NCBI GenBank assembly: GCA_043808155.1
Contig: JAZDFD010000009.1
Coordinates: forward strand, 1 to 16,872
Length of the DNA: 16,872 nt
Source: Candidatus Iainarchaeum sp.
GTDB lineage: Archaea; Iainarchaeota; Iainarchaeia; Iainarchaeales; JAZDFD01
Direction: 5' to 3'
Positions within the stretch are counted from its first letter, which is position 1. Each line of letters begins with the position of its first letter. Under the pieces are notes generated by a model that was not told where the DNA came from, searched no databases, and saw only the letters and a list, made by a program, of their open reading frames with translations. Positions 12,582 through 15,494 of this stretch are shown in pieces. A program made the position numbers and the translations under genes.

Positions 12582-12884
12582 ATGAAATCTCATAATTTCA
12601 TTAAATTATTTTTAATTGTAATAATCCTGATGTTTATTATTTCTGCAGGAAGTATTTACGCAACTAAAAATACTGCAGGTTTCATTTCCTTTGCAAATGT
12701 TTCTTTTGTTGAAGGTGTAATTCCTAATGCAAATCCACTTATGTTTGTGTTTTTCCTTATGTTAATTGCTTTTACACTGGTTTCTTTTTTCACATGGGCA
12801 TCAAACCAAAATGTTATCGAAGAAGACGATTATGAGACTATGCATAATGGGGTTGAATTTTATAGGCCCAATAGGGATTTTTAG
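12582..12884 (+). CDS. Small hypothetical membrane protein (two hydrophobic segments, acidic C-terminal tail)
   Basis: 100 aa. Hydrophobic stretches FIKLFLIVIILMFIISAG and PLMFVFFLMLIAFTLVSFF, tail VIEEDDYETM. Correctly spaced TATA upstream. Confidence 0.65.
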   Translation: MKSHNFIKLFLIVIILMFIISAGSIYATKNTAGFISFANVSFVEGVIPNANPLMFVFFLMLIAFTLVSFFTWASNQNVIEEDDYETMHNGVEFYRPNRDF

Positions 12885-12932
12885 TTCGGAATTCTAACAC
12901 CTAAAAAATAACTACTACTTTAGCGTTGGTAT

Positions 12933-13178
12933 ATTCGGTGTGGTGGGGACTTCAAGTTGTTGACCCCTGTGGTTAACATCAGGATTTCTTCGGGAATCTA
13001 ACTTGAATTAACATCACGCCATTTCGCAATTATCTTCGGATTTTTGCGACGCAGACTATCTTCGGATTTTCTGTACGGCTTATATCTTCGGATATTTGCC
13101 ATGTAAGCGGAATGTGCAGTTAAACATAGATTCTTTGGAATTTTTTGTTTATTCTGTACTCCTTCCACTTACACGAGT
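12933..13178 (+). ncRNA. Candidate novel highly structured ncRNA with multiple C(UUCG)G hairpins
   Basis: Helices found by hand: 12937-12945/13012-13020; 12951-12958/13000-13007; 12959-12965/12971-12977; 12982-12988/12993-12999 (UUCG loop); hairpins 13024-13049, 13051-13074 and 13077-13100 (all UUCG loops); long interrupted hairpin 13102-13173 (UUUG loop). About eight G-U pairs versus one A-C mismatch on the + strand. Followed by an oligo-T tract. Confidence 0.75.
13031..13093 (+). repeat. Three exact copies of TATCTTCGGAT at a 26-nt period
   Basis: Copies at 13031-13041, 13057-13067 and 13083-13093, separated by two different 15-nt segments. Confidence 0.95.
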
Positions 13179-13189
13179 TTTTTCATTTT
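13178..13189 (+). terminator. Oligo-T tract ending the structured RNA
   Basis: TTTTTTCATTTT immediately after the last hairpin. A second T tract lies at 13241-13252. Confidence 0.5.
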
Positions 13190-13259
13190 ACAATTATAAT
13201 GATATTTCTAATGTGTTTAATCCCCCCTGCTTTGCTAAGCTTTTTTTGTTTTCAGAGTT

Positions 13260-13269
13260 AAACTTATAA
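13260..13269 (+). promoter_or_regulatory. Putative BRE/TATA promoter of the KaiC-like operon
   Basis: AAAC-TTATAA, with TTATAA 30-35 nt upstream of ATG 13299. Confidence 0.5.
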
Positions 13270-13298
13270 TCTGCTAGCGCCATATATTAACGATTTCA

Positions 13299-14096
13299 AT
13301 GGGTGGAAGGAAAATAGCTAAGGCGCAGGCTAAATTTAATGCACAAGATGAAAAAGAAATGAAGTTGCAGATAAAAGAATTAATTGCATTGGGTTCTGAC
13401 TTCAAGATGCCAAGAATCAAAAGCGGAGTTCAAGGTTTAGACGAACTTATGGAAGGTGGAGTGCCTGAAAGAAGTCTGGTTCTTGTTGCAGGTGACACTG
13501 GAACTGGTAAAAGCACATTAGCAATGAACTTTCTTGTTGAAGGTGCACAAAACAACGAACCTGGTGTTTATGTTACTCTGGAAGAATCTGCGTCTGAACA
13601 TGCATTAAGAATGAAATTATTTGGCTGGCCAATTGAAAATTTAATTGCAGAAAAGAAACTTGCATTTGTACAGCCCGAACTTTATGATTTTGATAAACTA
13701 ATTGTGAATATTGAAGATGCAGTCACAAGAATAGGCGCTAAACGCCTTGTGATTGATAGTATCTCAATTTTAAACATGTATTTTAAGGATCCTTTTAAAG
13801 TGAGACGAAGTCTTCTGACTCTTGAGAAAGCAGTTAAAAATCTGAACTGCACAACTTTTGTAATTGCTGAATTAAGGCAGATTGGCGGTAATATTCAGTT
13901 AACCGGAGTGGAAGAATTTTTAGTTGATGGTATTATACTTCTTCATTATATTAAAAAAGAAAATGTTTATAGTCGTGCAATGGTTATAAGAAAAATGCGG
14001 GCAACAAATCATTCTCTTAAGATTCATCCTATGCAGATTAAACGGCCTGGCGGGGTAATTATCTATCCTGAAGAAGAAGTATTTACTGAACTTTAA
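13299..14096 (+). CDS. Single-domain KaiC/RAD55/GvpD-family RecA-superfamily ATPase
   Basis: IKSGVQGLDELMEGGVPERSLVLVAGDTGTGKST (Walker A), YVTLEE, RLVIDSIS (Walker B), VDGIILL and IRKMRATNH. Confidence 0.92.
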   Translation: MGGRKIAKAQAKFNAQDEKEMKLQIKELIALGSDFKMPRIKSGVQGLDELMEGGVPERSLVLVAGDTGTGKSTLAMNFLVEGAQNNEPGVYVTLEESASEHALRMKLFGWPIENLIAEKKLAFVQPELYDFDKLIVNIEDAVTRIGAKRLVIDSISILNMYFKDPFKVRRSLLTLEKAVKNLNCTTFVIAELRQIGGNIQLTGVEEFLVDGIILLHYIKKENVYSRAMVIRKMRATNHSLKIHPMQIKRPGGVIIYPEEEVFTEL

Positions 14097-14110: not shown

Positions 14111-14869
14111 GTGCCTAATAAAATAATTGAACCTACACAAAATGATAATCCTACAGCAACAACATCCAAAAAAGTTGAAGCTAAAAAAGTAAAAACCGGA
14201 GTTCACGGTTTGGATGATATTTTAAATGGCGGGATCCCTGTTGGAAATCTTGTTGTTGTTTCGGGAGAACCTGGTGCAGGAAAAACCATAATGTGTCTGG
14301 AATATCTTTATAGAGGTATTACTGATTTTGATGAACCAGGGGTTTATGTGAGTCTAGAAGAATCACCAGACGATATTGTAAAAACCGCAGCACAATTTGG
14401 TTGGGATATGATGCCGCTTGTGAAAAAAGGAAAACTTGCGATTCTTACAATTGAGCTTTATGATTTTGATAAACTGAGAAATACTATTGAAGATGTAGTT
14501 GAGAAAATCGGTGCAAAACGTCTTGTGATTGACCCTGGTGTTATTTTCAGATTGTTTTTTGAAAAAGAACTTGATGCAAGAAAAAGAATTTTAAGTCTTG
14601 GAAAAATGCTGAAAAAAATCGGATGTACTGCAATAATCACAAATGAAATAAGTCTTGATAAAATGTCATCTCTTTTTGGTTTGGAAGAATATATTGCAGA
14701 TGGTGTAATACTTCTGTATCACACTAAATTAGAAGACAGATTTGTAAGAAGTGCGGGAATTCTGAAAATGCGTGGCACTAAAATAAGCGAAAAATTGCAT
14801 CCTGTGAGAATCGATTCAGATGGACTTAAAATACTTTCAAAGCAAGAACTTTTTCAGGATATAAAGTGA
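14111..14869 (+). CDS. Second single-domain KaiC/RAD55-family ATPase
   Basis: GTG start after GGTG. VKTGVHGLDDILNGGIPVGNLVVVSGEPGAGKT, YVSLEE, RLVIDPG, ADGVILL and LKMRGT. Confidence 0.92.
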   Translation: MPNKIIEPTQNDNPTATTSKKVEAKKVKTGVHGLDDILNGGIPVGNLVVVSGEPGAGKTIMCLEYLYRGITDFDEPGVYVSLEESPDDIVKTAAQFGWDMMPLVKKGKLAILTIELYDFDKLRNTIEDVVEKIGAKRLVIDPGVIFRLFFEKELDARKRILSLGKMLKKIGCTAIITNEISLDKMSSLFGLEEYIADGVILLYHTKLEDRFVRSAGILKMRGTKISEKLHPVRIDSDGLKILSKQELFQDIK

Positions 14870-14873
14870 TATT

Positions 14874-15494
14874 ATGGGGAGTTTCAAACAGCAGAAAGAT
14901 GATGATGAGCTCTATGCACTTCTAAGGCCTGGAAGAGACATATATCTCAAAATTGCAGAGGTTATGAATAATACAAATCATGCATCAGTCATTCTGCTAA
15001 TTGAAAATATGTCTTACCATGCAGATACAAGAATTGAATTATTAAGATATTTGAAAAGTAATGAGTATGAGGGTGTTTATGTCACTCTGAATACGCCCAT
15101 TGCAAATCTAATTGATATTTTTGAAAAATCATCAATAAATATTGAAAATATCTACTTTATTGATGGGATTACAAAAACAACAGAATCTGAAATCATTGAA
15201 AGTGAACACTGCAGATATTTGGAGTCTCCGAGAGATGTTGTTGATTTGAGTTTTTTAATTGACGAATTCTTGAATAAAATTAAGCATCCTAAACGATTTG
15301 TTGTGATTGATTCAATTTCAACGTTAATGGTCTACAATAGCGAACAGGCAATAAAGCAATTCGCGCATTCTGTCACAGGGAAAATAAAATCAAAAAAAGC
15401 CAGTGGAGTAATAATTGCAAGTGATGATACTGATAAGGATGCGTTAAATTCAATTGCACACTTTTGCGATAAAACCCTGAAACTTTCAAACTAA
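14874..15494 (+). CDS. Inactivated KaiC-like ATPase-fold protein (DUF835/FlaH-like)
   Basis: Retains GVYVTLN, YFIDGIT, FVVIDSISTLMVYN and HFCDKTLKL, but the Walker A GxxxxGK is replaced by IENMSYHADT. Confidence 0.75.
   Translation: MGSFKQQKDDDELYALLRPGRDIYLKIAEVMNNTNHASVILLIENMSYHADTRIELLRYLKSNEYEGVYVTLNTPIANLIDIFEKSSINIENIYFIDGITKTTESEIIESEHCRYLESPRDVVDLSFLIDEFLNKIKHPKRFVVIDSISTLMVYNSEQAIKQFAHSVTGKIKSKKASGVIIASDDTDKDALNSIAHFCDKTLKLSN

Follow-up and report, generated by a model that had tools for sequence, protein, structure and literature searches.

Gene Content and Layout of the Locus

The window, i.e., the whole stretch of 16,872 nucleotides that was analyzed, contains between positions 12885 and 13298 an intergenic stretch bordered on one side by a 100-aa open reading frame (ORF) without Pfam match and on the other side by three KaiC-like genes. 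Read on the + strand, this stretch holds promoter-like elements, a Y-shaped domain made of four predicted helices (P1 to P4), three mini-hairpins in tandem (H1 to H3, hereafter the triplet), a long hairpin and a run of six T (Table 1). The long hairpin is built of 6-bp segments separated by three internal loops made exclusively of pyrimidines (U/UU, U/UU, and U/UCC), as a reading of the letters alone (hereafter the sequence-only reading) had described them, and it has one C/A mismatch at its base. It was also compared by eye with the GAGGAAU...GGACUUUGA type of hairpin of genomes G017, G018, and G104, and the assignment was rejected as the tandem G-A motif of that type is absent.

Table 1. Coordinates of the predicted RNA elements and downstream genes in the window.
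Feature	Position	Strand	Description and basis
Upstream inverted-repeat element GTTCGGAATTCTAAC	12884..12898	+	Place of the family GGTTTG..TTT block, about -54 to -40 from P1
TATA-like A/T-rich box TAAAAAATAA	12902..12911	+	-35 to -26 relative to P1; ungapped alignment
Y-shaped domain, 84 nt	12937..13020	+	Predicted fold, covariance models, covariation
Y-domain P1	12937-12945 with 13012-13020	+	
Y-domain P2	12948-12957 with 13001-13009	+	
Y-domain P3	12959-12965 with 12971-12977	+	
Y-domain P4	12982-12988 with 12993-12999	+	UUCG cap
H1 mini-hairpin	13024-13049	+	UCGCAA-UU-AUC-UUCG-GAU-UU-UUGCGA; 6-bp outer stem, UU/UU loop
H2 mini-hairpin	13051-13074	+	GCAGA-CU-AUC-UUCG-GAU-UU-UCUGU; 5-bp outer stem, CU/UU loop, one G-U pair
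H3 mini-hairpin	13077-13100	+	GGC-UU-AUAUC-UUCG-GAUAU-UU-GCC; 3-bp outer stem, UU/UU loop, AUAUC-UUCG-GAUAU cap
Long hairpin, 72 nt	13102..13173	+	UUUG loop; 6-bp segments
Run of six T	13178..13183	+	
KaiC-like single-domain ATPase, paralog	13299..14096	+	PF06745, E 5.6e-62; 42% identical to the family-linked KaiC of G102
KaiC-like ATPase, ortholog of the RNA-linked gene found elsewhere	14111..14869	+	PF06745, E 3.9e-62; 70% identity
Degenerate KaiC-like/DUF7504 protein, last of the cluster	14874..15494	+	Pfam search

A Conserved Family of Y-Shaped RNAs

BLASTN searches with the 271-nt region in 60 relatives returned noise, with the exception of a collinear pair of matches in genome G004, which turned out to mark another copy of the Y-shaped RNA, again followed by a KaiC-like gene. 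Two covariance models were used for further searches, R1 being built from a single sequence and R2 being rebuilt from 8 sequences. R1 matched 8 of the 151 genomes of the order, the window's own included (7 relatives out of 150), and R2 matched 22 of the 151 at E ≤ 0.1, again including the window's own. Strong copies, defined by an R2 score of at least 38 bits, occupy 16 places in 15 genomes of the same archaeal order. The window, which is one of the seed sequences of R2, scores 97.5 bits, and the 15 other places score between 38 and 88 bits.

In the alignment of these 16 sequences, which was fitted to the model and hence favors the structure, 94.8% of the cells pair and both sides have changed in 25 of the 32 pairs; such values were not reached by any of 500 shuffles, and the slid controls reached at most 11. 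RNAalifold independently gives the same Y fold, and its alignment displays conserved unpaired bases (UGGGR and UCUAAC) at the junctions. Helix P4 is conserved by sequence (AUUC-YUYG-GAAU), 2 of its 7 pairs changing on both sides, which suggests that it could be read by a partner. The window bears the hallmarks of the family, namely the P1-P2-P3-P4 fold, UGGGR after P1, and the AUUC-YUYG-GAAU hairpin abutting the 3′ strand of P2. The exact hallmark AATTCTTCGGAATT occurs at 18 sites in 13 of 196 genomes, vs. 2 sites for the reversed control. Among the 11 of these 18 sites that are located outside the known loci, about half belong to divergent family-like RNAs and the remainder lie in coding sequence.

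The region has no match at gathering level in Rfam, and the Y domain is a conserved RNA family absent from this database. R2 found no match in 151 genomes of the phylum of a genome labelled “Woesearchaeota” (another DPANN-type phylum) nor in 3 named archaeal genomes, and a metagenome scan with the core pattern gave 10 matches, all of them chance matches within coding sequence, of which R2 confirmed 0. The strict pattern GGTGTGGT(N)GGGGAC gave 2 extra matches in the 196 genomes, both coding when inspected by eye. Short weak matches of 71 to 76 nt were considered as possible tRNAs; ARAGORN found none among them.

Promoter and Predicted Transcript Ends

The 75 nt preceding P1 align without gaps in 16 of 16 strong members and contain two conserved blocks, of which the first reads GGTTTG..TTT (about -54 to -44) and the second is A/T-rich, mostly TTTTATT (about -30 to -23). 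The blocks of the window are in register with those of the other 15 members, and the upstream block includes GTTCGGAATTC at about -53 from P1. The inverted-repeat element found at this place is likely a regulator site, and the position of the TATA-like box implies a transcription start that would lie a few bases before 12937. TATA-like boxes are also present at the genes for the signal recognition particle (SRP) RNA, the RNase P RNA, and the 5S rRNA of this genome, which lack the upstream block. Judging from these alignments, the RNA is predicted to be a gene of its own with a position-conserved promoter.

In most family members, a T run is found either directly after P1 or after a 3′ tail. 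Directly after P1, the window has only a weak AUUU, and transcription is therefore predicted to continue to the six-T run, which is likely the archaeal termination signal and the 3′ end of the RNA. With a start and an end so placed, the triplet would occupy the middle of an independent small-RNA gene, about 250 nt long, that extends from approximately 12932 to 13183 on the + strand, a reading to which we assign a probability of roughly 0.6. The identity and the anatomy of the small RNA, taken by themselves, are considered highly probable.

The Mini-Hairpin Triplet

The three mini-hairpins are present base for base as the sequence-only reading had written them. The five tetraloops of the region start at 12989, 13035, 13061, 13087, and 13134, in agreement with the stated spacing of 46-26-26-47 nt. 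The near-symmetric layout that had been pointed out on this ground has support confined to this one sequence. The linkers between the hairpins of the triplet measure 1 to 2 nt, and a 17-nt core recurs three times at 26-nt spacing with 82 to 100% identity. Tandem Repeats Finder returned 0 rows at a minimum score of 30, i.e., there is no whole-unit repeat of 26 nt, and the repetition is therefore restricted to the cap and its flanks. The three outer stems differ from one another and all pair, in agreement with the earlier claim that it is the structure, and not the sequence of the whole unit, that has been kept. The outer stem of H2 and the long hairpin have GCAG...TTCTGTAC in common (repeat family D3).

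Folded alone, the 77-nt triplet has a minimum free energy of -26.6 kcal/mol vs. -12.7 ± 2.6 kcal/mol for 1000 dinucleotide shuffles (z -5.26), 1 of the 1000 shuffles being as low, and each of its pairs has a probability of 0.82 to 1.0 in a 246-nt context. The triplet is real and non-random. The fold of 12900-13200 is much more stable on the + strand (z -7.17) than on the - strand (z -3.77). The presence of G-U pairs, the single orientation of all the UUCG caps and the occurrence of relatives of the sequence in RNA libraries (see below) uphold the proposal that the feature acts as a + strand RNA. The three palindromes could conceivably serve as DNA operators for a dimeric regulator of the neighboring genes, as each unit is an imperfect inverted repeat and the promoter region holds an inverted repeat of its own. 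However, the G-U pair of H2 would become a mismatch when read from the opposite strand, all five caps have UUCG on one and the same strand while the - strand folds much worse, and the triplet is embedded between covarying RNA helices in a sequence whose relatives were recovered from RNA libraries, all of which makes such operators very improbable.

The triplet cap ATCTTCGGAT has 3 copies in the 1.08-Mb genome, at 13032, 13058, and 13084 only, these counts and the following ones applying to the portion of the genome represented at 88% completeness. A 14-mer search with one mismatch allowed finds one other site in the genome, and the looser pattern TTCTTCGGAA finds seven further sites, each of them within long ORFs. 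Next to H1, H2, and H3 on the 3′ side are C, AC, and AUG, respectively, so that no U run stands behind any hairpin of the triplet; the only T run of the region is located 3′ of the long hairpin. The sequence-only reading had named a dispersed REP/MITE-like element and a generic terminator as the findings that would undo it, and neither was encountered, as the cap is confined to this locus and the U run of a terminator is missing behind each of the three hairpins.

Short periodic hairpins upstream of a protein gene, with a termination signal between them, are also reminiscent of the ToxI-like RNAs of type III toxin-antitoxin systems. In ToxI-type arrays, the repeat comprises the entire unit, and the endoribonuclease encoded next to the array cuts the RNA. 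In contrast, only a cap region of 10 to 17 nt is repeated here, Tandem Repeats Finder detects no whole-unit repeat, and the neighbors are KaiC-like ATPases instead of endoribonuclease toxins; PADLOC, when run on five neighboring proteins, gave weak P-loop similarity only. Viral contigs gave 9 matches to the pattern, of which the model confirmed 0. Given these observations, and a cap that exists at a single locus with the TTCTTCGGAA sites found elsewhere lying inside long ORFs, it is hardly credible that the triplet is a REP/MITE-like element, a set of intrinsic terminators or an array of the type III antitoxin or CRISPR kind.

Close Relatives and RNA Libraries

The genome of the window is the sole member of its taxonomic family among the 196 genomes of the order, so that only relatives with 90 to 95% similarity lend the triplet comparative support. 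The comparison covers 4 of the 24 listed public runs, for which the index gave small shares only. Two DNA runs labelled as groundwater metagenome (X1 and X2) contain a relative that is 90 to 95% alike: the contig of X1 spans 12902-13183 with 16 differences and no indels, and that of X2 spans 12880-13075. Two RNA libraries contain related sequences as well, with coverage of 12951-13108 in X3 (labelled marine sediment) and 10 contigs with a summed word depth of 74 to 314 covering 13020-13173 in X11 (labelled groundwater); the contigs of X3 and X11 attest to the presence of the sequence in RNA libraries, which falls short of a proof of transcription. X11 lacks contigs over the Y domain (12937-13019) and over the flanks 12880-12936 and 13184-13300, and such gaps carry no weight for or against a cut between the Y domain and the tail or contamination by DNA. 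At 90 to 95% similarity, there has been little time for divergence.

Seven of the differences are located in 12918-12935, just upstream of the body of the RNA, and one affects the bulged C12950. The listed changes include 8 at paired positions, none of which disrupts the pair (A-U to G-U, G-U to A-U, C-G to U-G), and those of the long hairpin, at 13128 and 13130, are both A>G changes that turn A-U into G-U. The sole change within the triplet is found at 13056, the 5′ loop base of H2, which is changed from C to U in X1, X2, and X3 and from C to A in X11, where the A could pair with U13069. H1 is unchanged in X1, X2, X3, and X11, and H3 is unchanged in X1, X3, and X11. The internal loops had been described as conserved pyrimidine loops, which is right for the three copies within the window and wrong for the relatives, three runs having U and one having A at 13056; the pyrimidine identity at this position of H2 is not fixed. 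In the relatives, the triplet is almost free of change while 7 of the 35 positions of the upstream leader differ, which agrees with the earlier view that the structure is selected, and by this comparison of sequences the triplet is under short-term constraint. The similarity of X1 to the window ends exactly at 13183, where 13184-13241 is replaced by 67 other letters, and resumes at 13242-13269.

3′ Tails Across the Family

None of the 15 other strong members of the family carries the triplet, which is therefore unnecessary for the core function of the family. The expectation that homologs would conserve it fails at the level of the order, and what had been taken for a separate unit is better described as an insert, specific to this lineage, within a conserved small RNA of larger size. 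Across the family, the tails behind the Y domain range from zero to at least five other UUCG-capped hairpins. Most members, among them G004, G028, G019, G102, and G111, have no tail. The tail of G104 consists of one long hairpin capped by GAAAUUC-GAAA-GAAUUUC, and those of G027 and G045 consist of a long hairpin and a short one, both UUCG-capped. At least five tandem hairpins follow the core in G018, with a common internal GAGGAAU...GGACUUUG motif and different stems; near-identical hairpin copies are found in the same genome, and tandem copies occur in G100. As judged from these alignments, arrays of capped hairpins behind the core arose more than once, with different hairpin types.

Confinement of the triplet to a single lineage, the wide differences between tails that grow by duplication (G018 and G100), and the stem sequence common to H2 and the long hairpin are what one would expect if the triplet were a functionless by-product of local duplication or palindrome amplification in a tolerant 3′ tail, which would seem conserved only through the closeness of the relatives compared. 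Against this explanation, outer stems of 6, 5, and 3 bp all pair, for which the chance in unrelated sequence is estimated at about 1e-6 (with 6 of 16 base combinations pairing), the same contig has one change in the 77 nt of the triplet vs. 7 in the 35 nt that precede the RNA, and the stability of the triplet fold stands far outside that of its shuffles (z -5.26). We regard a by-product without function as unlikely.

A scan of a genome collection for two caps separated by 12 to 20 nt returned 118 stretches, and the 80 that were listed come from unrelated bacteria and archaea; R2 matched none of the 3 archaeal stretches to which it was applied. The two-cap pattern doubles as a coding word.

Gene Neighborhood and KaiC-Like ATPases

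A KaiC-like gene lies directly downstream, at a distance of 67 to 273 nt, in 9 of the 16 strong members, which Pfam confirms for 8 of them plus the window. These nine KaiC-adjacent members all have the same orientation relative to the gene and represent four taxonomic families. As for the remaining members, one ends at a contig edge, five have other neighbors, and G019 has an inserted gene, which resembles an IS200-type transposase (by eye), between the RNA and a KaiC pair located 1.8 kb downstream. On the upstream side, the genes vary with the taxonomic family and include a glycosyltransferase, an M16 peptidase, a ribonucleotide reductase, and a divergent CoaE, the last of which is also found upstream in the window. 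Conversely, among 30 loci of the KaiC ortholog, the RNA is present at G000, G004, and G056 only, to which a weak variant upstream of the ortholog in G049 can be added. A different UUCG-capped hairpin is found in G017 behind a promoter that looks similar by eye (upstream block and TATA-like box). In G041, the KaiC gene is 90% identical and the RNA is lost; the association between the RNA and KaiC, frequent as it is, is thus not an obligatory one.

A region of this kind could also be a cis-acting 5′ leader of the KaiC-like operon, similar to a riboswitch or an attenuator, whose hairpins would act either on read-through of the T run or on the translation of the first gene. The adjacency and common orientation just described (9 of 16 strong members in four taxonomic families), the T run behind the structure, and the conserved unpaired junction bases UGGGR and UCUAAC, as in ligand pockets, are all compatible with a leader. 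On the other hand, 6 of the 16 members precede other genes (one more being cut at a contig end), and the RNA is missing from G041, whose KaiC gene is 90% identical. In X1, moreover, the sequence separating the T run from the gene is replaced while a short block just ahead of the start codon is kept, as would be the case for a separate promoter, and in the f20 genomes a conserved A/T-rich block precedes the KaiC gene. The conservation of P4 by sequence instead of covariation (2 of 7 pairs) better fits a macromolecular partner. A leader function therefore seems improbable, and the stand-alone small RNA is retained as the preferred reading.

Proposed Origin and Function of the Tail

As a stand-alone small RNA, the family RNA would normally end at the T run right after P1, often just upstream of a KaiC-like gene, and in the lineage of the window the transcript would run on through the three mini-hairpins and the long hairpin to the six-T run. 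The tail probably arose by local hairpin duplication, because H2 and the long hairpin have stem sequence in common and the caps resemble that of P4 (AUUC-UUCG-GAAU), and it would later have been kept by selection on pairing. The repeated caps might then offer several copies of one recognition surface to a hairpin-binding factor, possibly the reader of P4, and at the least the hairpins would form a nuclease-resistant 3′ tail. Multivalent binding by the repeated capped hairpins is put forward as a tentative function. UUCG tetraloops are usually structural caps and not protein contacts. The triplet caps (AUC...GAU) and the P4 cap (UUC...GAA) differ, and a single binding factor common to both is therefore a guess.

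A more ambitious version of this proposal would make the RNA an archaeal small RNA that titrates or scaffolds proteins, in which the number of hairpins would set the sequestration or the assembly of a factor and which would be wired to the neighboring KaiC-like ATPases. KaiC-like ATPases have been proposed as archaeal signaling hubs. The number of hairpins in the tail does vary, from none in many relatives to 3 + 1 here and at least 5 in G018. Such a role appears doubtful; if true, it would be the first archaeal counterpart of the protein-titrating or scaffolding small RNAs.

Comparison with Known RNAs

The analogy originally drawn was with sponge RNAs in the style of CsrB/RsmZ. It holds in so far as an array of short hairpins displays the same capped motif in a copy number that varies between lineages. 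In CsrB/RsmZ RNAs, the hairpin loops present a GGA to CsrA/RsmA. The loops of the RNA described here read UUCG or UUUG, the host is an archaeon, and CsrA (PF02599) has 0 matches in the 88%-complete genome, 3 control genomes being positive in the same search; the likeness is thus one of repeated hairpins and does not extend to the loops or to the protein partner.

Size range, strong structure, a promoter of its own, and an end in a T run are features that the RNA has in common with the housekeeping RNAs of archaea. SRP RNA, RNase P RNA, and 5S rRNA were each considered as its identity and rejected, as each is found elsewhere in the genome, and tRNA was rejected as well, the window containing none. 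Unlike housekeeping RNAs, the Y family is not universal, having been detected in 22 of 151 genomes of the order.

Small structured RNAs built of repeated hairpin modules are known; what is new, in our assessment, is a family of small RNAs from archaea that had escaped annotation and whose hairpin tail is evolvable. To our knowledge, almost no regulatory RNAs have been described in small-genome (DPANN-type) archaea, and we know of no work on the control or the partners of their many KaiC-like ATPases. The locus adds to this picture an RNA family supported by covariation, with a defined promoter, fold, and recurrent gene neighbor, whose 3′ tail has gained and lost capped hairpins from one lineage to another. 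Two questions become testable, namely what reads the AUUC-UUCG-GAAU hairpin and whether the copy number of hairpins tunes a response. Even if the tail merely stabilizes the RNA, the family is useful for the annotation of otherwise blank intergenic regions.

Among the families of Rfam, RAGATH-32 (RF02922) ranked best on the Y domain for 3 of the 8 members that were scanned. Its consensus, like the Y domain, has a 5′ GUGG...GG and two adjacent hairpins, the second of the GAGUYC-UUCG-GRACUC type followed by UAA, and its ends, as we read the consensus, could form a P2-like helix. Unlike the Y family, the RAGATH-32 model has no 3′ strand of P1. Membership of the Y family in RAGATH-32 was rejected, as the scores (15.7 bits for the window, 21.8 for locus L043, and 18.1 for L041, the other five members giving none at E ≤ 10) are all far below the gathering threshold of 41.8 bits. 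True RAGATH-32 was found in none of the 151 genomes of the phylum or of 14 control genomes, and searches of the literature, supplements excepted, for RAGATH-32, for RAGATH together with archaea or KaiC, and for DPANN structured RNAs returned nothing relevant. The resemblance may reflect chance or very distant kinship. In a pooled scan of seven loci, an unrelated snoRNA match elsewhere in L043 outranked RF02922.

Architecture of the long hairpin and of the adjoining spacer

The long hairpin that closes the RNA tail follows a regular 7-nt step along its 5′ strand, a single U lying opposite UU, UU or UCC between successive 6-bp segments, and the longest perfect helix found anywhere in the RNA tail of the window does not exceed 6 bp. 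In the RNA-library run X11, three records depart from the genomic sequence after the last position of this hairpin (13173) and add nine other letters, which match without error the reverse complement of 13093-13101, the 3′ arm of mini-hairpin 3. A fold-back or an assembly artefact at a hairpin-rich RNA may account for this extension.

A repeat search also returned a 17-nt copy, 82% identical, of part of the long hairpin's 5′ strand. The start codon of the first KaiC-like gene follows at a distance of 27-43 nt, and the copy falls in the sole block of the spacer that is retained by the close relative present in the DNA metagenome run X1 (13242-13269). Because of this copy, the 3′ strand of the hairpin could also pair with this part of the spacer, provided that the latter is transcribed; the copy itself may be a product of chance in A/T-rich sequence.

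Related arrays and copy number in the archaeal order

In another genome of the same order (G018), at least five hairpins stand in tandem behind a short variant of the Y RNA, in an array broken by a run of N. Each of these hairpins bears a UUCG cap and an internal GAGGAAU...GGACUUUG motif, corresponding to tandem G-A beside G-U pairs, on stems that differ, and two of the hairpins are near-identical copies. Hairpins of this type also occur singly in two further genomes of the order: in G017 the hairpin precedes the KaiC ortholog, and in G021 it lies ~1.1 kb upstream of that gene. The Y RNA family multiplies in some lineages, several copies being carried per genome in some genomes (e.g., G097 and G100).

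Elements outside the RNA locus

Elsewhere in the genome from which the window derives (G000), at least 10 of the 35 tRNA genes are directly preceded, 5′ of the mature tRNA, by a similar structured element of ~60 nt composed of two hairpins, one GAAG-capped, the second abutting the tRNA start. It might serve as a leader or in processing, or represent part of a rearranged tRNA gene. The window itself also harbors an archaeal type IV pilus-like gene cluster.

Location of the features discussed in this section
Feature	Location	Details
Long hairpin	13102-13173	
Spacer copy of hairpin 5′ strand	13256-13272	Copy of 13118-13134
Tandem-hairpin array (G018)	C1, ~121600-122160, − strand	Locus L057
Family copies (G097)	L054, L063, L197, L207	Four places
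Family copies (G100)	L064	Two tandem short copies
tRNA-linked element (G000), examples	C34:12214, C6:22252, C28:16891, C24:25688, C35:18331	
Pilus-like cluster	818-10718	Members: a T2SSE-type ATPase, two T2SSF-type membrane proteins, a VWA-domain protein (781 aa) and a protein whose match to a class III signal peptide is weak and sub-threshold
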